Of a DNA stretch of 8,003 nt, positions 1 through 8,003 are shown one piece after another. How positions within the stretch are numbered: the stretch's first letter is position 1; the number at the start of each line of letters is the position of its first letter. A program made the position numbers and the translations under genes. The notes under the pieces are model-generated. The model did not search any database. It was given only the letters and a program-made list of their open reading frames with translations, and was not told where the DNA came from. The DNA is from a virus (Duplodnaviria; Heunggongvirae; Uroviricota; Caudoviricetes): positions 1-8,003 of the IMG/VR virus record IMGVR_UViG_2660238346_000006. One strand, given 5' to 3'.

Positions 1-67
1 CGCTTTACGTGCGACATATTCCCGTCCATGAACCCTTCACCACACCCCAAAGTTCACTTTGGTTATT

Positions 68-82
68 GCGCTTTGTCAGCGC
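68..82 (-). promoter_or_regulatory. Putative nutL boxB hairpin (P22-type, GACAA loop) on the leftward transcript
   Basis: Plus strand reads GCGCTTTGTCAGCGC, so the minus strand reads GCGCTGACAAAGCGC: a 5-bp GC stem with a GACAA loop, matching the P22-type boxB as I recall it. It lies left of the OL-like operators, where a pL transcript would carry nutL. Confidence 0.5.
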
Positions 83-149
83 CGTAGATTCATATTCGAA
101 TCGTTGTATATTCACCGCCCTGGTGAGTAGTGCGTCCTGCTGATGGGTG

Positions 150-270
150 AACTTTATCGGAATGATAAATTAATGGCAATAGCAAAATGATAAATTCTCT
201 TGGTTTTCAAATATCGTATTGATTCTTATGGTGTTTTATTTTGTTGTAGGAATTCGACAGGATAAATAAA
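150..270. promoter_or_regulatory. Putative OL/pL operator region with repeated TGATAAAT-type half-sites
   Basis: ATGATAAATT occurs at 162-171 and again at 187-196; TTTATC-N5-GATAAA inverted repeat at 154-170; GATAAAT at 261-267. The same motif family recurs in the cI/cro intergenic region (2621-2694). No sizeable ORF here. Confidence 0.45.
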
Positions 271-373
271 GAGATTTGAGGGAGATCTGGATTGCGTTGT
301 TTAGCAAGTTGTATCTATCAGTTTTTCAATAAATACAATCGATTATGTGTTTTTAGGTGGGCGAACGTGGGGC

Positions 374-399
374 AAAGAAAACCCGGCGCTGAGGCCGGG
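374..399 (-). terminator. Rho-independent terminator closing the leftward cI / toxin-antitoxin-chaperone operon
   Basis: Minus strand reads CCCGGC-CTCAGC-GCCGGG followed by TTTTCTTTG, starting about 10 nt after the stop of the SecB-like gene (409): GC-rich 6-bp stem, 6-nt loop, T-tract. Confidence 0.6.
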
Positions 400-408
400 T
401 GGGGAATT

Positions 409-813
409 TCACTTATTACTGTTCGTTTCCATGGGATTGGCCAAGAAATCAAAATAAGGCAGAGTGAACCTACCAAGGTTTGACATGAGGATAATTTGCT
501 CGGCATATGTTTTTATATAGGGATATGCCATATTGGGAGCAATGGACCTTACCTCATATGATTTTGCCATTTCATGAGAAAAATCATCTTCTGACCGGAA
601 GTCAAAGTCGTATGTGATGTCCATCTCAAGCCTGCCTTCAATAGTTACGGAGGCAAAATATCTCACTCTAAATAGCTTTGAATCCTTCACATTAGTGTAA
701 AGTTCATTATTTAGATTAACGGTTGTTTTTATGGATTTTTTTGCTGTTGAATCGCCTTCTAGCCGTGTCATAACCAAGCGTTCAACTTTTTTGCTAATGA
801 GTTCAATTTTCAT
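409..813 (-). CDS. SecB-like chaperone (third gene of the TAC-type module), 134 aa
   Basis: C-terminal segment APNMAYPYIKTYAEQIILMSNLGRFTLPYFDFLAN parallels the conserved E. coli SecB segment ([35 protein letters not shown], recalled from memory). Size is right for SecB-like chaperones. Start ATG overlaps the upstream antitoxin stop (ATGA at 810-813). Confidence 0.7.
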   Translation of the reverse strand: MKIELISKKVERLVMTRLEGDSTAKKSIKTTVNLNNELYTNVKDSKLFRVRYFASVTIEGRLEMDITYDFDFRSEDDFSHEMAKSYEVRSIAPNMAYPYIKTYAEQIILMSNLGRFTLPYFDFLANPMETNSNK

Positions 814-1466
814 GGTAATAATAAGTAATTTCCGTCAGAAGTCATTTCGTCATTCAGGTTGCTAGCCGCTGTGAAACTTGATGACAAGTTACTTATCAAA
901 GAAAAAACATTCCGTTTTTCTTTGCATTTGCCGTTACCCCTTACTGCGCTGAACAACATTTTTGAAAAGTAAGATTCTGTAGCCTTTTCAGCGAAATAAG
1001 CAGAAGGTGATGTGACGGCTGACTCACACCGAGCAATGACGCTAGTCATGGCTGTTTCTTCTTCCTCTGCGTCAACTAGGCTCCATTCAATTGCGCTCAT
1101 ATCTTGAATTAAGATATCTGCAGGAATTCCAAGTCCGTCATGTAGTCTACGGATCATTGAAAGACTTAATGGACGCTTACGATTTAAGACCTCAGATACT
1201 TTAGATGCTGAGCCAATGTATTGTTTCATATCGGCATAAGAGAGGCCTTGTTGATCCATACGGAACTTGATTGCTTCTATGGGATCTGGCTTGTCCATAG
1301 GGAACTCGCGTGACTCATAGTGCTCGATAAGCAAGCCTAGTAGTTCAAACTCATCAAAATCTTCAGTTCCAGGTTGTAAATCACTAGACGCAAGTTCAAT
1401 GAGCCTTTCCATAGCTGCAGCATGCTCTTCACTATTTTTAATGATGCGCCAGCTAGTTCGATTCAT
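810..1466 (-). CDS. higA: HigA-type antitoxin (XRE-family HTH) with ~90-aa C-terminal extension, putative chaperone-addiction region, 218 aa
   Basis: Residues ~95-130 (GSASKVSEVLNRKRPLSLSMIRRLHDGLGIPADILIQD) match the C-terminal HTH of E. coli HigA (GSKSMVSRVLSGKRKLTLEHAKKLATRFGISPALFID, recalled). The ORF then continues ~90 aa beyond where HigA normally ends. ATGA overlaps with higB upstream and the SecB-like gene downstream. Confidence 0.75.
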   Translation of the reverse strand: MNRTSWRIIKNSEEHAAAMERLIELASSDLQPGTEDFDEFELLGLLIEHYESREFPMDKPDPIEAIKFRMDQQGLSYADMKQYIGSASKVSEVLNRKRPLSLSMIRRLHDGLGIPADILIQDMSAIEWSLVDAEEEETAMTSVIARCESAVTSPSAYFAEKATESYFSKMLFSAVRGNGKCKEKRNVFSLISNLSSSFTAASNLNDEMTSDGNYLLLP

Positions 1467-1750
1467 TTAAGCCTCCACTTGTCGTACTCTGCATGAGTTC
1501 CAACTCTTTCAACTATGACCATTCCTGCCTGGTAAACAACTTGGACAACGAGCCGATAGTTATTGCCTTTTATATTAAAAATTACCCTGTTGTTAGGAAG
1601 GAAGTCGGCAGAATTAAATCTATTCCGTATGTCTTGAGTCGTTTTCCAGTTTTCTCTTATCACTTCATCATACCAAGAGTCTAAAGCCCCCTTGGCCTGA
1701 TTGTGCTTCTGGCTAAAACTGTGAAGCTTCTCTACGTTTAAGACCTTCAT
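1463..1750 (-). CDS. higB: HigB-family toxin (ribosome-dependent mRNA interferase, RelE superfamily), 95 aa
   Basis: FNIKGNNYRLVVQVVYQAGMVIVERVGTHAEYD aligns with E. coli K-12 HigB FNVGGNELRVVAMVFFESQKCYIREVMTHKEYD (recalled). Toxin-first gene order is typical of HigBA. Stop overlaps antitoxin start. Confidence 0.8.
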   Translation of the reverse strand: MKVLNVEKLHSFSQKHNQAKGALDSWYDEVIRENWKTTQDIRNRFNSADFLPNNRVIFNIKGNNYRLVVQVVYQAGMVIVERVGTHAEYDKWRLK

Positions 1751-1762
1751 AATCCGATTTTG

Positions 1763-1804
1763 TTCCCTCTTTGGGAATTATAGATTCATTTCCCATAAAG
1801 GGAA
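1763..1804. promoter_or_regulatory. Twin palindromes TTCCC-N5-GGGAA upstream of higB; candidate operator/promoter of the TAC module
   Basis: TTCCCTCTTTGGGAA at 1763-1777 and TTCCCATAAAGGGAA at 1790-1804 lie 13-54 bp upstream of the higB start, inside the 136-bp cI-higB intergenic gap. Type II antitoxins commonly autoregulate through palindromic operators. Confidence 0.45.
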
Positions 1805-1886
1805 TCTGTATTTTTATCCAGAAATGCTATGTACATCACCCAAACGTCTCTTCAGGCCACTGGTTACCAGCTATGTGACGATGAAG

Positions 1887-2591
1887 TCACGAACTTTTCA
1901 GCCACTCCCTTGCCTCGATGTCATCCAGATGGCGAGATTGCTTCAGAATACCAGCTACATACTCCACCTTTGCTACTTGATGATAAGGCAACGTTATAGG
2001 CCTGTGATCCTGGTTAATGCTTGTAAATTGGTATTCTCCATCTCTGTCATAGCCAAGAACCTTAATCATGTTGTGTCCTTCAACGGTTCTGACAAACACC
2101 TCATCACCCGGGAATACTTTGGTGTTAGGCTCAATGAGTACATATTCTCCTGATTTTATTCTGGGCCACATGCTGTCTCCTTTCACACGAAGACCAAAGG
2201 CATCTGGATCATCGCTATAAATTTTGAGCCACCCATCGCGCTCTTCGGTCATCTCGATGGCACCATCAACACCAAGAATTGCCTCACCAACCACGCGCAC
2301 TAACCCTTTTCTTACCTGACCGACAAAAGTTAAAGAATCTGAGAATGATGCAATTGGTGTTACATCATGTACCAAATCAAGCCACCCATTAGGTAACCCA
2401 AGCGCGGCTTCAAATTTTCTTGCTAGTTTATCCCCTATGTTTCGAGTGCTTTTTTCACCGGAGACTTGCGTGAGTTGAGAAGGGCTAACCCCAAGCTTAT
2501 CGGCAAAGCTTGCATTAGTGTTACCCGCGATTTTTTTATGCTCATCTAGCAAAAACGCCAGATTCGATTTGCGAATATCTTTGTTTTCCAT
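1887..2591 (-). CDS. cI: CI-like prophage repressor (N-terminal HTH, C-terminal S24/LexA-like autopeptidase), 234 aa
   Basis: HTH-like N-terminus (FADKLGVSPSQLTQVSG). C-terminal domain has the S24 catalytic-Ser motif (VKGDSMWPRIKSGEYVLIEP) and a downstream Lys (NMIKVL). Divergent from the cro-like gene across an operator-rich spacer. RBS GAGGGA upstream of ATG. Confidence 0.85.
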   Translation of the reverse strand: MENKDIRKSNLAFLLDEHKKIAGNTNASFADKLGVSPSQLTQVSGEKSTRNIGDKLARKFEAALGLPNGWLDLVHDVTPIASFSDSLTFVGQVRKGLVRVVGEAILGVDGAIEMTEERDGWLKIYSDDPDAFGLRVKGDSMWPRIKSGEYVLIEPNTKVFPGDEVFVRTVEGHNMIKVLGYDRDGEYQFTSINQDHRPITLPYHQVAKVEYVAGILKQSRHLDDIEAREWLKSS

Positions 2592-2704
2592 CTCACAATT
2601 TTCCCTCTATTTAGCAAATGGATAAATACGCAATATGATAAATTTACATTGCGGTTGATTTATCAAAATGGTAAAGTTGTTCTGTGTGATAAACGGAGGC
2701 ACTA
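2592..2704. promoter_or_regulatory. OR-type operator / divergent promoter region (PRM-like leftward, PR-like rightward)
   Basis: 113-bp spacer between divergent cI and cro-like genes containing GATAAAT (2621-2627), inverted TGATAAAT (2636-2643) and ATTTATCA (2658-2665), and TGATAAAC (2687-2694). Motif shared with the OL-like region at 154-267. Confidence 0.6.
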
Positions 2705-2938
2705 ATGAGTAATGAACTACTACGCTGGCGAAAAGAGGCTTCTAGCGAGGAATGGAAGCGACTCGCCGCATTAGCGAAAACTTCAGTTGGCTATCTTGAC
2801 CAGATTGCATATGGATTTCGAAGAGCTTCCCCTGATAAAGCGAATGCAATCGAAGAAGCTACTCGTAATTTCACGGGTTATAAACCTGTGAAAAAGGAAA
2901 ACCTAGTGTTCGTATCGCGTAGAGCATCGGCTGCATAA
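2705..2938 (+). CDS. cro: Cro-like small DNA-binding protein, 77 aa
   Basis: First rightward gene after the operator region, strong RBS (GGAGG) before ATG, small basic protein. Assignment is mainly positional; family membership not verifiable by eye. Confidence 0.6.
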   Translation: MSNELLRWRKEASSEEWKRLAALAKTSVGYLDQIAYGFRRASPDKANAIEEATRNFTGYKPVKKENLVFVSRRASAA

Positions 2939-2976
2939 GTAACACCGCTATTTTCACAATGGACATTCGTCCTACG

Positions 2977-2991
2977 TCGCTGACAAAGCGA
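2977..2991 (+). promoter_or_regulatory. Putative nutR boxB hairpin (GACAA loop), with possible boxA-like CGCTATTTT at 2946-2954
   Basis: TCGCTGACAAAGCGA: 5-bp stem with GACAA loop, near-identical to the minus-strand element at 68-82. Located between cro-like and cII, where lambdoid nutR sits. Confidence 0.5.
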
Positions 2992-3076
2992 GTCCCAATA
3001 TATCTGACCAACTAAGGCCATATGCGTTTCCACGCATACCTTTCAACTAACTATTCACTATTGGAAATATTAAGAA

Positions 3077-3442
3077 ATGACACAAACAAGTTACAGCAAA
3101 CTATCACAGCGTGACGTTGATCGCGCAGAAACAGATTTACTCATCAACCTATCAACGCTTACCCAGCGCGGTCTGGCAAAGATGATTGGCTGTCATGAAT
3201 CGAAGATAAGCAGAACGGACTGGAGACTTACCCAGCGCGGTCTGGCAAAGATGATTGGCTGTCATGAATCGAAGATAAGCAGAACGGACTGGAGATTTAT
3301 TGCTTCGGTCTTGTGTGCTTTCGGAATGGCATCAGACATCAGTCCGATTAGCAGGGCTTTTAAGTATGCGCTTGCTGAAATCACAAAGAAAAAACGCCCG
3401 GCGGCAACCGAGCGTTCTGAACAAATCCAGATGGAATTCTGA
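3077..3442 (+). CDS. cII: CII-like transcriptional activator carrying an in-frame 23-codon tandem duplication, 121 aa
   Basis: C-terminus [18 protein letters not shown] matches the lambda CII C-terminus as I recall it. Position between cro and O. Internal repeat [23 protein letters not shown] occurs twice consecutively. Confidence 0.85.
3158..3295 (+). repeat. Perfect 69-bp direct tandem duplication (2 copies) inside cII
   Basis: 3158-3226 and 3227-3295 are identical (cttacccagcgcggtctggcaaagatgattggctgtcatgaatcgaagataagcagaacggactggaga). Flanking bases differ on both sides. 69 bp = 23 codons, so the frame is preserved. Confidence 0.9.
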
Positions 3443-3474
3443 GGGAATTACTGGATCAATCCACAGGAGTAATT

Positions 3475-3621
3475 ATGACAAAACAACTCAGTCCTTACCA
3501 GGACAAAATTCACAAACACATACTACGTGATCGCTTCCTGTCCAGCTTCAAGCAGCCTGGTCGATTCCGGGCTGGGTTGGAAAAAGTGAAGCTGATGCAG
3601 AAGGAGAAAGGTCATGAGTAA
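3475..3621 (+). CDS. Small hypothetical protein (48 aa) between cII and O; below the ORF-track length cutoff
   Basis: ATG at 3475 preceded by GGAG (7-nt spacing); translates [48 protein letters not shown] with stop TAA 3619-3621, overlapping the O start. Hand-translated. Confidence 0.35.
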
Positions 3622-4519
3622 TCTTGCAACCGTAACACATTTAAGGCCTTCACAACGGCCTGTGGAGCGTCGTGTGGCAGAAGTTGAAGATGGTTATACC
3701 CGTCTTGCAAATGCCCTGTATGAAGAGCTTATCGGCGCAGATTTAACGAAAAATCAGAGCAAGGTTGCCCACGCCATATGCCGTAAAACATACGGCTACG
3801 GTAAAAAGATGGATCGCATCTCTGATAGTCAGTTAGCTCAAATTACCAGGCTGCCAAGACAGAAGGTAAACAAGGCCAAGAATGAGCTTATCGCGATGAA
3901 GGTTATCCTTCGCGAAGGCCAGCAAATCGGGCCTAACAAGAACATCGAGGAATGGCAAATCGAAGGGTGTCACTACTCTGGTGATAATGTCACTGCATTG
4001 GTGACAAAAAGTGTCACCAAAACGGTGACAGCGCTGTCACCAAAACAGGGACACACAAAAGAAACTATTACAAAAGAAAAAAGAAAAGATTATTCGTCCG
4101 AGAATTCTGGCGAATCCTCTGACCAGCCAGAAAACGATCTTTCTGTGGTTAAACCGGATGCTGCAATTCAGAGCGGCAGCAAGTGGGGAACAGCAGAAGA
4201 CCTGACCGCCGCAGAGTGGATGTTTGACATGGTGAAGACCATCGCACCATCAGCCAGAAAACCGAATTTTGCAGGGTGGGCTAACGATATCCGCCTGATG
4301 CGTGAACGTGACGGACGTAACCACCGCGATATGTGTGTGCTTTTCCGCTGGGCCTGCCAGGACAACTTCTGGTCCGGTAACGTGCTGAGTCCGGCCAAAC
4401 TCCGCGACAAGTGGACCCAGCTCGAAATCAACCGTAACAAGCAACAGGCAGGCGTGACAGCCAGCAAACCAAAACCCGACCTGACAAACACTGACTGGAT
4501 TTACGGGGTGGATTTATGA
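3614..4519 (+). CDS. O: Replication initiator protein O (lambda O family), 301 aa
   Basis: C-terminal half ([39 protein letters not shown]...[11 protein letters not shown]) matches lambda O as recalled. Contains iteron-like repeats plus an AT-rich tract mid-gene. Stop overlaps P start (ATGA). Confidence 0.9.
3968..4090. repeat. Putative replication origin: four iteron-like repeats with TGTCAC...GTGACA symmetry followed by an AT-rich tract, inside O
   Basis: Repeats begin near 3968, 3989, 4012 and 4034 (about 21-23 bp apart): TGTCACtactctgGTGATA, TGTCACtgcattgGTGACA, TGTCACCaaaacGGTGACA, TGTCACCaaaacagGGACAC. Followed by an A-rich stretch 4055-4090 (acaaaagaaactattacaaaagaaaaaagaaaag). Same architecture as ori-lambda, different iteron sequence. 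Confidence 0.6.
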
Positions 4520-5217
4520 AAAACATCGCCGCACAGATGGTTAACTTTGACCGTGAGCAGATGCGTCGGATCGCCAACAACATGCCGGAACAGTACGACG
4601 AAAAGCCGCAGGTACAACAGGTAGCGCAGATCATCAACGGTGTGTTCAGCCAGTTACTGGCAACTTTCCCGGCGAGTCTGGCTAACCGGGACCAGAACGA
4701 ACTGAATGAAATCCGCCGCCAGTGGGTTCTGGCTTTCCGGGAAAACGGGATCACCTCGATGGAACAGGTTAACGCAGGAATGCGCGTAGCCCGTCGGCAG
4801 AATCGACCATTTCTTCCATCACCCGGGCAGTTTGTTGCATGGTGCCGGGAAGAAGCATCCGTTATCGCCGAACTGCCAAACGTCAGCGAGCTGGTTGATA
4901 TGGTTTACGAGTATTGCCGGAAGCGTGGCCTGTATCCGGATGCAGAGTCTTATCCGTGGAAATCAAACGCGCACTACTGGCTGGTTACCAACCTGTACCA
5001 GAACATGCGGGCCAATGCGCTGACTGACGCGGAATTACGGCGCAAGGCTGCCGATGAACTGACCTGTATGATAGCACGAATTAACCGTGGTGAGACGATA
5101 CCTGAACCAGTAAAACAACTTCCTGTCATGGGCGGCAGACCTCTAAATCGAGCACAGGCTCTGGCGAAGATCGCAGAAATTAAAGCTAAGTTCGGACTGA
5201 AAGGAGCAAGTGTATGA
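4516..5217 (+). CDS. P: Replication protein P (DnaB helicase loader), 233 aa
   Basis: Sequence [44 protein letters not shown]... is essentially lambda P as I recall it. Translationally coupled to O and ren. Confidence 0.9.
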   Translation: MKNIAAQMVNFDREQMRRIANNMPEQYDEKPQVQQVAQIINGVFSQLLATFPASLANRDQNELNEIRRQWVLAFRENGITSMEQVNAGMRVARRQNRPFLPSPGQFVAWCREEASVIAELPNVSELVDMVYEYCRKRGLYPDAESYPWKSNAHYWLVTNLYQNMRANALTDAELRRKAADELTCMIARINRGETIPEPVKQLPVMGGRPLNRAQALAKIAEIKAKFGLKGASV

Positions 5218-5504
5218 CGGGCAAAGAGGCAATTATTCATTACCTCGTGGCGCATAAGAACTTCTGTGCACAGGACGTTTCCGCGGTAACAGGCGCAACC
5301 GTAACCAGTATAAATCAGGCTGCGGCTAAAATGGCGCGGGCAGGAATCCTTGTCATTGATGGTAAGGTCTGGCGAACGGTGTATTACCGGTTTGCTACCA
5401 GGGAAGAACGGGAAGGAAAGGTGAGCACGAACCTGATTTTTAAGGAGTGTCGCCAGAGTGCAGTGATGAAACGGGTATTGGCGGTATATGGAGTTAAAAG
5501 ATGA
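5214..5504 (+). CDS. ren: Ren protein (lambda ren homolog), 96 aa
   Basis: MTGKEAIIHY...VTSINQAAAKMARAG...VWRTVYYRFATREEREGK...KRVLAVYGVKR closely matches lambda Ren (96 aa) as recalled. Start overlaps P stop. Confidence 0.85.
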   Translation: MTGKEAIIHYLVAHKNFCAQDVSAVTGATVTSINQAAAKMARAGILVIDGKVWRTVYYRFATREEREGKVSTNLIFKECRQSAVMKRVLAVYGVKR

Positions 5505-5528
5505 CCATCTACATCACTGAGCTTGTAA

Positions 5529-5560
5529 CAGGCCTGCTGGTAATCGCAGGCCTTTTTATT
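5529..5560 (+). terminator. Putative rho-independent terminator downstream of ren (tR2-like position)
   Basis: CAGGCCTGC-tggtaatc-GCAGGCCT followed by TTTTTATTT: GC-rich 8-9 bp stem and T-run. Lambda has tR2 just downstream of ren at the start of the nin region. Confidence 0.5.
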
Positions 5561-5589
5561 TGGGGAAGAGTAATTGGAGGCTTTAAGAA

Positions 5590-5805
5590 ATGAGTACGAT
5601 AGCTGAGCTTGTCAGGGCTAATTTTCGTGAAGAGTTGGTGCGTTGGTATCGGTATCGTTCATCGTCCAGTTTGCCGCTTGATGAGTTGTATGAGCATTCA
5701 CCTGCCGCACGACGCTATCCGCGTGACCGTGTTCTTCGACGGTTGTTCAAACTCAACAATGAGTTTCAGCGCAACAGAATTATCCGGAGTCTGGATTTAA
5801 AGTGA
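5590..5805 (+). CDS. Hypothetical nin-region protein, 71 aa
   Basis: ORF with GGAGG 9 nt upstream of ATG; charged, helix-like composition. Preferred over the overlapping alternate-frame ORF 5609-5800, which is Cys/hydrophobic-rich and lacks an RBS. No recognised family. Confidence 0.4.
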   Translation: MSTIAELVRANFREELVRWYRYRSSSSLPLDELYEHSPAARRYPRDRVLRRLFKLNNEFQRNRIIRSLDLK

Positions 5806-5815
5806 AGGAGTGAGC

Positions 5816-6052
5816 ATGAGCGACCTATCATTAACCCAGCCAAAGCTAAAAGAATGTCCGTTTTGCGGCGGTAATGCTCGTCTGTGGGTTGAGGCCGGAA
5901 TAAATATTGATGTGTGGGGCTATGCAGAATGTGACCTCTGTGAAGCCAGGGGGGCATGGGCACCATCAGTTGCTGCGGCGGCTGAAAAATGGAACCGGAG
6001 AGCAGGAGATGAAGCAAACCTTTCTGCTTCGCAACGAAGCAATCAGAAATAA
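5816..6052 (+). CDS. Lar-family restriction alleviation protein-like (CPFCG zinc-ribbon), ~78 aa
   Basis: KECPFCGG near the N-terminus and EKWNRRA near the C-terminus match the Lar-family pattern as I recall it. ATG at 5816 has AAGGAG 5 nt upstream; the ORF-track start at 5810 is a GTG two codons earlier. Confidence 0.55.
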   Translation: MSDLSLTQPKLKECPFCGGNARLWVEAGINIDVWGYAECDLCEARGAWAPSVAAAAEKWNRRAGDEANLSASQRSNQK

Positions 6053-6455
6053 CGCCATAGACGCCATTCTCTCACTACCCATCGACGACAAGTCACCCCA
6101 CGAAGTCCACGTTAAAGAACCCAAGCGCAGCAAAGCGCAGAATGACCGTATGTGGCCGATGCTGAACGATGTTTCGCGTCAGGTGCTATGGCATGGTCAA
6201 CGGCTGGCGCCGGAAGACTGGAAAGACCTGTTCACTGCCCTGTGGCTTAAGACCAAAAAACTGGAGCAACGAAGTGTGCCTGGTATCGACGGTGGCGTTG
6301 TCATGCTTGGTGTGCGTACCAGCAAAATGCGAAAGGCCAACATGACTGAGCTTATCGAAATCATGTTCTGGTTCGGCTCAGAGCGCAACGTGCGGTGGAG
6401 TGATGACTCCTGGCGAGAGTATGAATGGTCACAACGAAAAGGGAAGGCTGCATGA
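6009..6455 (+). CDS. ninB: NinB (Orf family recombination mediator), ~148 aa
   Basis: KAQNDRMWPMLNDVSRQVLWHGQRLAPEDWKDLFTALWLKTKKL...MLGVRTSKMRKANMTELIEIMFWFGSERNVRWSDD resembles lambda NinB. Start chosen at ATG 6009 (GGAG upstream, lambda-like length) rather than the ORF-track start at 5907, which would add an N-terminal extension running through the Lar-like gene. Confidence 0.8.
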   Translation: MKQTFLLRNEAIRNNAIDAILSLPIDDKSPHEVHVKEPKRSKAQNDRMWPMLNDVSRQVLWHGQRLAPEDWKDLFTALWLKTKKLEQRSVPGIDGGVVMLGVRTSKMRKANMTELIEIMFWFGSERNVRWSDDSWREYEWSQRKGKAA

Positions 6456-6979
6456 CTATCAAATCAAATACGCCAGCACACGACAAGGACTGCTGGCAAA
6501 CGCCGCTTTGGCTTTTTGATGCACTGGATATTGAGTTTGGATTCTGGCTGGATTCGGCAGCGAGCGACAAAAATGCTCTGTGTGCTCACTGGCTAACTGA
6601 GGCCGACGACGCGCTCAATTCTGAGTGGGTAAGCCACGGTGCAATCTGGAATAACCCACCGTACAGCAATATCAGGCCGTGGGTGGAAAAAGCCGCTGAG
6701 CAGTGCATACAACAACGACAGACGGTAGTGATGCTTGTGCCAGAGGATATGTCTGTCGGATGGTTCAGTAAGGCTCTGGAGAGTGTTGACGAAGTTCGCA
6801 TCATCACTGATGGACGGATTAATTTTATCGAACCATCGACAGGGCTGGAGAAGAAGGGAAACAGCAAAGGTTCCATGCTGCTGATTTGGCGACCGTTCAT
6901 CAGTCCTCGACGGATGTTTACTACCGTATCCAAAGCGGCATTGATGGCGATCGGGCAGGGCGTCAGGAGGGCGGCATGA
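6452..6979 (+). CDS. Phage Dam-type DNA N6-adenine methyltransferase, ~175 aa
   Basis: NPPY catalytic motif ([10 protein letters not shown]); size and organisation typical of small phage N6-adenine methyltransferases. Start ATG 6452 overlaps ninB stop (ATGA); the ORF-track start at 6425 adds 9 codons. Confidence 0.8.
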
Positions 6980-7158
6980 GGCGACAGCGACGAAGTATCA
7001 CCGACATCATCTGCGAAAACTGCAAATACCTTCCAACGAAACGCTCCAGAAATAAACCCAGGCCAATCCCAAAAGAATCTGACGTTAAAACCTTCAATTA
7101 CACGGCTCACCTGTGGGATATCCGGTGGCTAAGACATCGTGCGAGGAAAACAAGGTGA
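6976..7158 (+). CDS. ninE: NinE, 60 aa
   Basis: [60 protein letters not shown] matches lambda NinE as recalled. ATG 6976 overlaps the methyltransferase stop (ATGA), in frame with ORF 6886-7158. Confidence 0.75.
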
Positions 7159-7298
7159 TTGACGTGATGATTTATTCGGGGCTATATTCCTCACGCGCCA
7201 GCAAAATCTGGCGTCGGGATTTGCACCCCGGATATTCAACCGCGACAGACACACGCCGCGAGCGTGTTTTTTGTTGTCGTAAGCACACGCACATCTGA
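7155..7298 (+). CDS. Small hypothetical protein at the ninF position, ~47 aa
   Basis: In-frame GTG at 7155 overlaps ninE stop (GTGA) with GAGGA upstream; alternative ATG at 7167. Product [47 protein letters not shown]; family not recognised. Confidence 0.35.
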
Positions 7299-7436
7299 AT
7301 TATGGTGGGGCGTATGGGGGAGCCGAAAGGCTCGCCGGTTGGTTGATCCGGTAGTGCAAACCCTGTACGTCTCACCACCCAAAGATTTGCACCTGACGGT
7401 GGTGATAGTTAAATTCATCAACCAGAGGGCGTTGTC

Positions 7437-8003
7437 ATGGCGACTCAAATTTCCGTTGAAACTCTTTCCCCAATTGCCTACAACCAGATCCCCGTAATTA
7501 CTACAGAATTATTGGCGCAATTGTATGGCACTGAAACAGTCAATATAAAAATGAATTTTTCCCGTAACTCTGCGCGATTTGTACAGGGAAAACATTTCTT
7601 TAAGTTGGAAGGGAATGAACTACGTGAGTTCAAGCACAGACTATCTTTAAGCGAGTCTGTTAGCCGCGAGGTAACAGAAAGTTACTCTGTGAAAATCGCC
7701 CGCAATGTTCGCTCCCTCATCCTCTGGACAGAACGAGGCGCAGCCCGTCACGCAAAAATGCTCGAAACTGATCAGGCGTGGGAAGTGTTCGAAAAACTGG
7801 AAGACTGCTATTTCAGCCAGTGCGAGAAAAATACTGGCAAACAAGAGAAGAAGCTCAACGGACTTTCCGCAAAAGAAGCAAACAGCCTTGTATGGCTATG
7901 GGATTATGCTAACCGTTCACAGGCATTATTCCGCGAACTGTATCCGGCGCTAAAGCAAATTCAATCGAACTATTCTGACAGGTGCTACAACTACGGTCAT
8001 GAG
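7437..8003 (+). CDS. ORF6N-domain / Roi-like DNA-binding protein, 5-prime partial (runs off the window end)
   Basis: Hand translation from ATG 7437 (GAGGG 8 nt upstream) is open to the end: [66 protein letters not shown]... The PVIT-x-LAxLYG-x-E-x-RN-x-RF-x-G-x-FFKL pattern is typical of ORF6N-domain proteins. Absent from the ORF track, presumably because it has no stop in the window. Confidence 0.55.

Follow-up and report, generated by a model that had tools for sequence, protein, structure and literature searches.

A Predicted Disordered C-Terminal Extension of a Prophage-Encoded HigA Antitoxin as the Probable Chaperone-Addiction Element of a HigBAC Phage-Defense System

Introduction

HigBAC of Escherichia coli NT1F31, characterized by Mets et al. 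2024 (bioRxiv 10.1101/2024.02.24.581848), is a toxin-antitoxin-chaperone (TAC) system that defends against phage. It is carried by a lambdoid prophage, downstream of cI and in the position of rexAB, and its HigA antitoxin is 218 aa long, of which residues 122-218 are the chaperone-addiction (ChAD) element; the authors term this element more than twice as long as the ChAD of Mycobacterium tuberculosis. Here we analyze 8,003 nucleotides of a Caudoviricetes virus record (IMG/VR IMGVR_UViG_2660238346_000006, positions 1 to 8,003), the whole of which we call the window. An original prediction, made from the sequence without database searches, had singled out in this DNA the long C-terminal tail of a HigA-like antitoxin encoded next to a SecB-like gene, and had proposed that the tail is a chaperone-addiction region.

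How does the tail of NT1F31 HigA act? Mets et al. found that HigBA alone is toxic and that co-expression of HigC rescues, while HigA from which residues 122-218 have been deleted neutralizes HigB without HigC. The aromatic residues W128, F158, F188, and Y214 of the tail slot into HigC pockets of Y39, N41, R49, and D71, and the protein ends in Leu-Pro. A peptide of HigA residues 121-148 binds HigC with a dissociation constant of 1.3 uM by isothermal titration calorimetry, and the W128A substitution abolishes this binding. When W128, F158, and Y214 are substituted together rescue is lost, and when all four aromatics are substituted addiction is lost; the F188A variant lowers HigBA toxicity, and HigC R49A does not rescue. 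The trigger was traced to the lambda protein gpV by escape mutants, which map to gpV S54P, and by peptide competition; HigC is contested between the ChAD and nascent gpV, and this competition triggers the toxin. The same study includes a solubility analysis by CamSol and models the complex with AlphaFold-Multimer.

The HigB1-HigA1-SecB^TA system of M. tuberculosis (Rv1955-Rv1957; Bordes 2016, Guillet 2019) is similarly built. Its antitoxin carries a disordered C-terminal ChAD, which is bound through aromatic residues by a tetramer of SecB fold, and removal of the ChAD makes the pair chaperone-independent.

Results

The window carries higB, higA, and higC as head-to-tail, overlapping open reading frames (ORFs) on the minus strand, as read from the ORF list and its translations. 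The toxin gene higB (1463-1750) encodes a RelE-like mRNA interferase of 95 aa, higA (810-1466, with its stop codon at 810-812) an antitoxin of 218 aa, and higC (409-813) a SecB-like chaperone of 134 aa. Residues 1-121 of HigA (1104-1466) comprise an N-terminal helical domain and a helix-turn-helix (HTH), and residues 122-218 (813-1103) make up a C-terminal extension of 97 aa. We propose, with a probability of roughly 0.93, that this extension acts as the chaperone-addiction element in a phage-defense TAC system, HigB-HigA-HigC, borne by a prophage. For the window we computed the operon architecture, the extension and its boundaries, its predicted disorder, the SecB fold of the third protein, the co-occurrence of long tails with a third gene, and the sequence match to NT1F31 HigBAC; for chaperone dependence, binding, and the trigger we rely on Mets et al.

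The match to NT1F31 HigBAC supports the assignment of the tail as a ChAD. Both are three-gene operons downstream of a lambdoid cI gene, and they share the 218-aa HigA, the aromatic anchors, the Leu-Pro end, and the HigC pocket residues. All eleven sequence landmarks named by Mets et al. are present in the window proteins, and the synthetic peptide HigA121-146, QDMSAIEWSLVDAEEEETAMTSVIAR (Dataset S1 of Mets et al.), is the same as window residues 121-146, a run of 26 identical consecutive residues; over the landmarks and this peptide no difference was detected. The four anchors are encoded on the minus strand at 1083-1085 (W128, in the context E-W-S), 993-995 (F158), 903-905 (F188, inside the aggregation-prone patch NVFSLISNL), and 825-827 (Y214, beyond which the protein terminates in LLLP).

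The proposal of the original prediction that the tail is the addiction segment of a TAC system is therefore supported, the boundaries being those of the published ChAD. All four checks that it had suggested are on record in the work of Mets et al., with the outcomes it had foreseen: truncation after the HTH leaves an antitoxin that neutralizes HigB without the chaperone, a tail peptide binds HigC directly, and the aggregation propensity of the tail and the structure of the antitoxin-chaperone complex have both been predicted. The suspicion that the tail is longer than those described holds when it is set against the ChADs of 2016-2019, which measure 30-47 aa to its 97 aa; the tail is an expanded variant of these, although one already described in 2024.

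Where does the folded part of HigA end? The ORF does run on past the HTH as had been noted, 813-1091 encoding residues 126-218 with the acidic stretch DAEEEETAMTS and a Ser/Phe/Tyr-rich end. The HTH had, however, been placed as reaching to near residue 130, and this needs correction. Pfam HTH_3 spans residues 67-118; the solved E. coli HigA structures 5ycl and 5ifg (138 aa) align to residues 53-119, up to their own C-termini; and the AlphaFold model of HigA, built with 41 homologues, has a predicted local distance difference test (pLDDT) score of about 90 over residues 11-120, with its last helix at 116-119. Because these three lines of evidence put the folded end at about residue 121, we take the extension to begin at residue 122. 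In the same model residues 130-218 have pLDDT below 50 and no secondary structure, as against about 90 in the body, and the extension is accordingly predicted to be intrinsically disordered.

Comparison of HigA homologues suggests that long tails travel with a third gene. Lengths are bimodal among the best 120, with one group at about 120-145 aa and a second at about 180-245 aa, and the short homologues align only to the first 53-56% of window HigA. Mean identity to window HigA is 0.26 in the tail versus 0.75 in the body. Within the tail, E127 and W128 are kept in 94-96% of 79 long homologues while the remainder varies, and aromatic residues recur about 27-30, 60-66, and 86-90 residues past W128 (65 homologues). 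We read six loci with long homologues, from Pectobacterium, Klebsiella (two), Rosenbergiella, and Salmonella (two). All six have the order repressor, higB, long higA, and then a gene of 131-138 aa, although in one of them (L009) higB itself is missing from the called genes; the third gene of one locus has a weak Pfam SecB match. The loci of two short homologues are plain higBA pairs.

A further short homologue, of 128 aa, lies downstream of a cI-like repressor in Serratia symbiotica (L006, 2291-3164), with a 62-aa product at the higB position and an 86-aa ORF after it. The locus appears to be a HigBA(C) remnant that has decayed in the genome of a symbiont, and we left it out of the comparison of tails and third genes on account of its degraded appearance.

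HigC was said to be SecB-like, and this is confirmed by its fold while being invisible to sequence models. The 134-aa protein has no SecB match in Pfam, in NCBIfam, in a phmmer search of the PDB, or in a search of the PDB with a 20-sequence profile. Its AlphaFold model (pLDDT 86.1) consists of four strands followed by a long helix, and the top 19 Foldseek matches of this model in the PDB are all SecB or SecB^TA, with template modeling (TM) scores of 0.66-0.76 and E values from 6.5e-7 to 1.4e-4. The best of them is M. tuberculosis Rv1957 with its ChAD peptide (5mtw; E=6.5e-7, TM 0.73), and E. coli SecB (1qyn) reaches TM 0.76. The failure to detect SecB by sequence is consistent with the identity between HigC and the SecB structures, which is just 12-17%. 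HigC also matches the PADLOC profile PD-T4-9_C, that of CmdC, the chaperone of CmdTAC (E=2.8e-11). It carries Y39, N41, R49, and D71, the last three of which are invariant in 20 homologues. On the strength of the modeled structure, the third gene has the SecB fold expected of a TAC chaperone.

The toxin and the folded part of HigA, by comparison, are readily recognized. HigB matches Pfam PF09907 HigB_toxin (E=4.5e-30) and PADLOC PD-Lambda-2_A (E=2.2e-42), and the RefSeq label of its orthologue is HigB family toxin. HigA residues 5-127 match positions 3-125 of PADLOC PD-Lambda-2_B (E=3.8e-50). Thus, every TAC feature open to computation was found in the window: a three-gene operon of toxin, antitoxin, and chaperone, a SecB fold, predicted disorder, and an extension that is absent from the 120-145 aa homologues of two-gene higBA loci.

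Discussion

We propose that the tail makes HigA depend on HigC in the following manner. Left alone, the disordered, aromatic-studded tail would destabilize HigA, so that the mRNA-cleaving toxin HigB would not be neutralized. Binding of the tail by a tetramer of the SecB-like HigC would keep HigA functional, the four anchors, which lie about 30 residues apart, apparently serving one chaperone subunit each. On infection by a lambda-like phage, the nascent major tail protein gpV, which bears a similar pattern of aromatic and acidic residues, would compete for HigC; with HigC lured away HigA would be lost, HigB would shut down translation, and the infection would fail. On this account, which Mets et al. 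published for HigBAC, a disordered tail would convert an otherwise ordinary pair of toxin and antitoxin into a sensor of phage, in which a nascent phage tail protein lures the chaperone away.

Several points weigh against this interpretation. The functional experiments were performed on the NT1F31 proteins, while the window system is known to us from its sequence and from models. Full-length identity to the NT1F31 proteins (WP_112844288-290) is probable to us from the landmarks and the 26 residues only. Carriers of the operon are polymorphic, since the window has HigB Q14 and HigC S27 where the alleles of Shiga-toxin (Stx) phages have Arg and Ala. The geometry in which one tail wraps around four chaperone subunits is an AlphaFold-Multimer model, which Mets et al. 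list as a limitation. Finally, the published signals on whether the free tail aggregates or is proteolyzed are mixed, ClpXP and Lon being dispensable and aggregates not being seen.

Could the tail be an artefact of annotation or sequencing, a HigA of about 125 aa having been joined by a frameshift or a lost stop codon to non-coding or out-of-frame sequence? Many HigA homologues are short (120-145 aa), and the tail resembles low-complexity sequence (16% Ser), has no Pfam match, and is poorly conserved. Nevertheless, the identical 218-aa HigA is recorded on at least 1000 contigs, and Klebsiella and Salmonella orthologues of 218-222 aa keep the frame of the tail open. In these orthologues the ratio of nonsynonymous to synonymous substitution rates (dN/dS) in the tail is 0.17-0.31 at dS 0.8-1.6, compared with 0.02-0.04 in the folded domain; in the closest pair, for which counts are low, the tail value is 0.71. 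The chance that 97 codons would stay open at the base composition of the window is about 0.0015, the higA stop overlaps the higC start as ATGA, and the published deletion of residues 122-218 has a phenotype (Mets et al. 2024, bioRxiv 10.1101/2024.02.24.581848). From the open frame, the copy number, and dN/dS it follows that the tail is translated and constrained, far more loosely than the body, and such loose constraint is what is expected of a disordered region carrying short motifs. We rejected an artefactual origin on the grounds of conservation, dN/dS, and copy number, and regard it as scarcely credible.

A second explanation, which we consider improbable, is that the tail acts chiefly as a degron for proteases or as a regulatory linker, like the ClpXP-targeted ends of M. 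tuberculosis HigA1 and CmdA, and that the third gene is an accessory whose product does not bind it. In other TAC systems the end of the ChAD is indeed a ClpXP degron, and Mets et al. observed 5-fold more of an mNeonGreen-ChAD fusion when HigC is present, with no visible aggregates when it is absent, from which they infer protection from proteolysis. Yet window HigA ends in Leu-Pro rather than in Ala-Ala or Val-Ala, and deletion of clpP, clpX, or lon leaves HigBA toxic (Mets et al.); these two observations led us to discard a pure degron. The published binding of the tail peptide to HigC, measured directly and dependent on W128, stands against it as well, as do the SecB fold and the conserved pocket residues of HigC. 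A degron component, if one were found, would add to the ChAD model and not replace it. It is less probable still that the window holds a diverged HigBAC allele, in which the tail or the chaperone has a trigger specificity unlike that of NT1F31. The tail is the fastest-evolving part of HigA, close relatives (94% identity) terminate in SLVS and not LLLP, and HigB and HigC are each one residue away from the Stx-phage alleles. All published landmarks and the 26-residue peptide nevertheless match exactly, and these include the LLLP-type Leu-Pro end that sets this allele apart from its nearest relatives. We therefore continue with the tail as a ChAD of the NT1F31 type.

How does this HigBAC compare with other described systems? 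Rv1957 heads the structural matches of HigC, at a sequence identity of only 16-17% between the chaperones. The M. tuberculosis ChAD is shorter, at about 42-47 aa against 97 aa in the window (other early ChADs have 30-41 aa). It has one main site (W108, R110, Y114) and a 4:2 stoichiometry, as opposed to four spaced anchors in one chain; it carries a ClpXP degron with a Val-Ala end, whereas window HigA ends in Leu-Pro and the published system is independent of ClpXP; and the mycobacterial system is framed as a stress module rather than as phage defense. CmdTAC (PD-T4-9) and MqsRAC of E. coli (Vassallo et al. 2022; PMC11618068) are closer in this last respect. Both combine a SecB-like third gene with a ChAD-bearing antitoxin in defense by abortive infection, but their toxins, an ADP-ribosyltransferase and MqsR, and their antitoxins are unrelated to those of HigBAC, and their targets are T-even phages rather than lambda-type siphoviruses. 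Moreover, CmdA ends in Ala-Ala and is ClpXP-dependent.

PD-lambda-2 (Vassallo et al. 2022) offers another comparison. It has the same HigB family, the same N-terminal core of HigA, and a role in defense against lambda, but its HigA core continues into a fused C-terminal peptidase domain (profile length 402) and has no ChAD, and its third gene is related to a P4 antitoxin, not to SecB. With a peptidase fusion there and a ChAD in the window, the same HigBA core has been joined to different C-terminal sensor modules. HigBA of E. coli K-12 (YgjN/YgjM; 5ifg, 5ycl) shares the HTH antitoxin architecture over residues 53-119 (E about 5e-5) and differs in having two genes, the 138-aa HigA stopping at the end of the HTH with neither a tail nor a chaperone.

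The finding is thus correct but already known, because nothing in it exceeds the 2024 characterization, in which the same system was described with its long tail. The HigBAC study reportedly appeared later in Cell Host & Microbe (2024). What the present analysis adds lies in annotation and distribution. An independent computation shows that the label "hypothetical protein" on the third gene hides a SecB fold, and the same HigA allele is found in medically relevant Stx phages. RefSeq, through the Prokaryotic Genome Annotation Pipeline (PGAP), and phage GenBank records keep generic labels for the higBAC genes: HigC is a "hypothetical protein," and HigA is a "helix-turn-helix domain-containing protein" or a "transcriptional regulator." Since HigC matches no Pfam or NCBIfam model, a characterized defense system is invisible to standard annotation.

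Other Features of the Prophage Region

The window carries a lambdoid prophage immunity region, in which the higBAC operon takes the place that rexAB has in lambda. Directly upstream of the operon on the same strand is a 234-aa ORF (1887-2591, minus strand) for a cI-like prophage repressor of the LexA/S24 family, annotated as a LexA family regulator in E. coli strain 86-24 and as cI in phage BP-4795; the opposite strand carries cro-like, cII, O, P, ren, ninB, and dam genes. Within the operon the higB stop and higA start overlap as TAAATGA, and the higA stop and higC start as ATGA. Overlapping stop and start codons of this kind are typical of a translationally coupled operon. At the higA/higC junction, Tandem Repeats Finder also reports a 21-bp match (780-819; 1.9 copies, 78% match), which we judge to be a weak chance repeat. 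Nine nucleotides past the higC stop lies a hairpin resembling an intrinsic terminator by consensus match only (381-400, minus strand), with a 7-bp stem of which 6 pairs are G-C, followed by TTTCTTT. A total of 88 complete E. coli genomes contain the operon at a coverage of at least 80%.

Upstream of higB are two perfect TTCCC-N5-GGGAA palindromes, 27 bp apart (1763-1777 and 1790-1804), where 0.01 matches would be expected by chance. The same palindrome occurs just upstream of higB in five related loci (L001, L002, L003, L004, and L007), which comprise loci from E. coli, Pectobacterium, and Klebsiella and two two-gene higBA loci. The palindromes (1763-1804) are probably HigA operators. A TATAAT sequence between them (1777-1782, minus strand) is a candidate for the operon's own promoter; a consensus promoter scan upstream of higB flagged none, and because the TATAAT has a poor -35 element the operon may instead be co-transcribed with cI, as lambda rexAB is.

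The same operon recurs, at 99.2% DNA identity, in the immunity region of Stx phages: in the Stx1 phage BP-4795, in the Stx2 phage ST2-8624 of O157:H7 strain 86-24, and in many Stx1a phages. Window positions 409-1750 correspond to 8720-10061 in BP-4795 (L011) and to 6111-7452 in E. coli 86-24 (L001). HigA of the Stx phages is 100% identical to that of the window, and the sole protein changes are HigB Q14R and HigC S27A. In BP-4795 the three genes are ORF20-22, all labeled "hypothetical," and the HigBAC paper of Mets et al. makes no mention of Stx phages.

How might BP-4795 tolerate its own defense system? Its ORF64, a putative major tail subunit (L011, 36187-37032), has no similarity to the trigger region of gpV, the gpV query being a sequence of which the N-terminus was checked against the landmarks and peptide of Mets et al. 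only; the single match between the two is a 25-aa stretch elsewhere in the protein (E=0.002). Dissimilarity of the tail proteins could thus explain why BP-4795 tolerates its own HigBAC. As a tentative extension, which we hold to be rather doubtful, HigBAC of Stx phages may serve to exclude lambda-type siphoviruses, with the resident phages escaping self-triggering by means of a tail-tube protein that lacks the gpV-like aromatic and acidic loop, and the fast-evolving ChAD/HigC pairs of lambdoid prophages may set differing trigger specificities.

Finally, the cII-like ORF of the window (3077-3442) contains an in-frame 69-bp tandem duplication at 3158-3299 (2.1 copies, 98% match). It repeats 23 residues, giving a CII of 121 aa instead of 98 aa, and the best matches among 5,426 complete E. 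coli genomes all lack it, their gene being the unduplicated one of 297 bp. Either the duplication is a rare mutation, with a possible crippling effect on CII, or it arose as an artefact of assembly.

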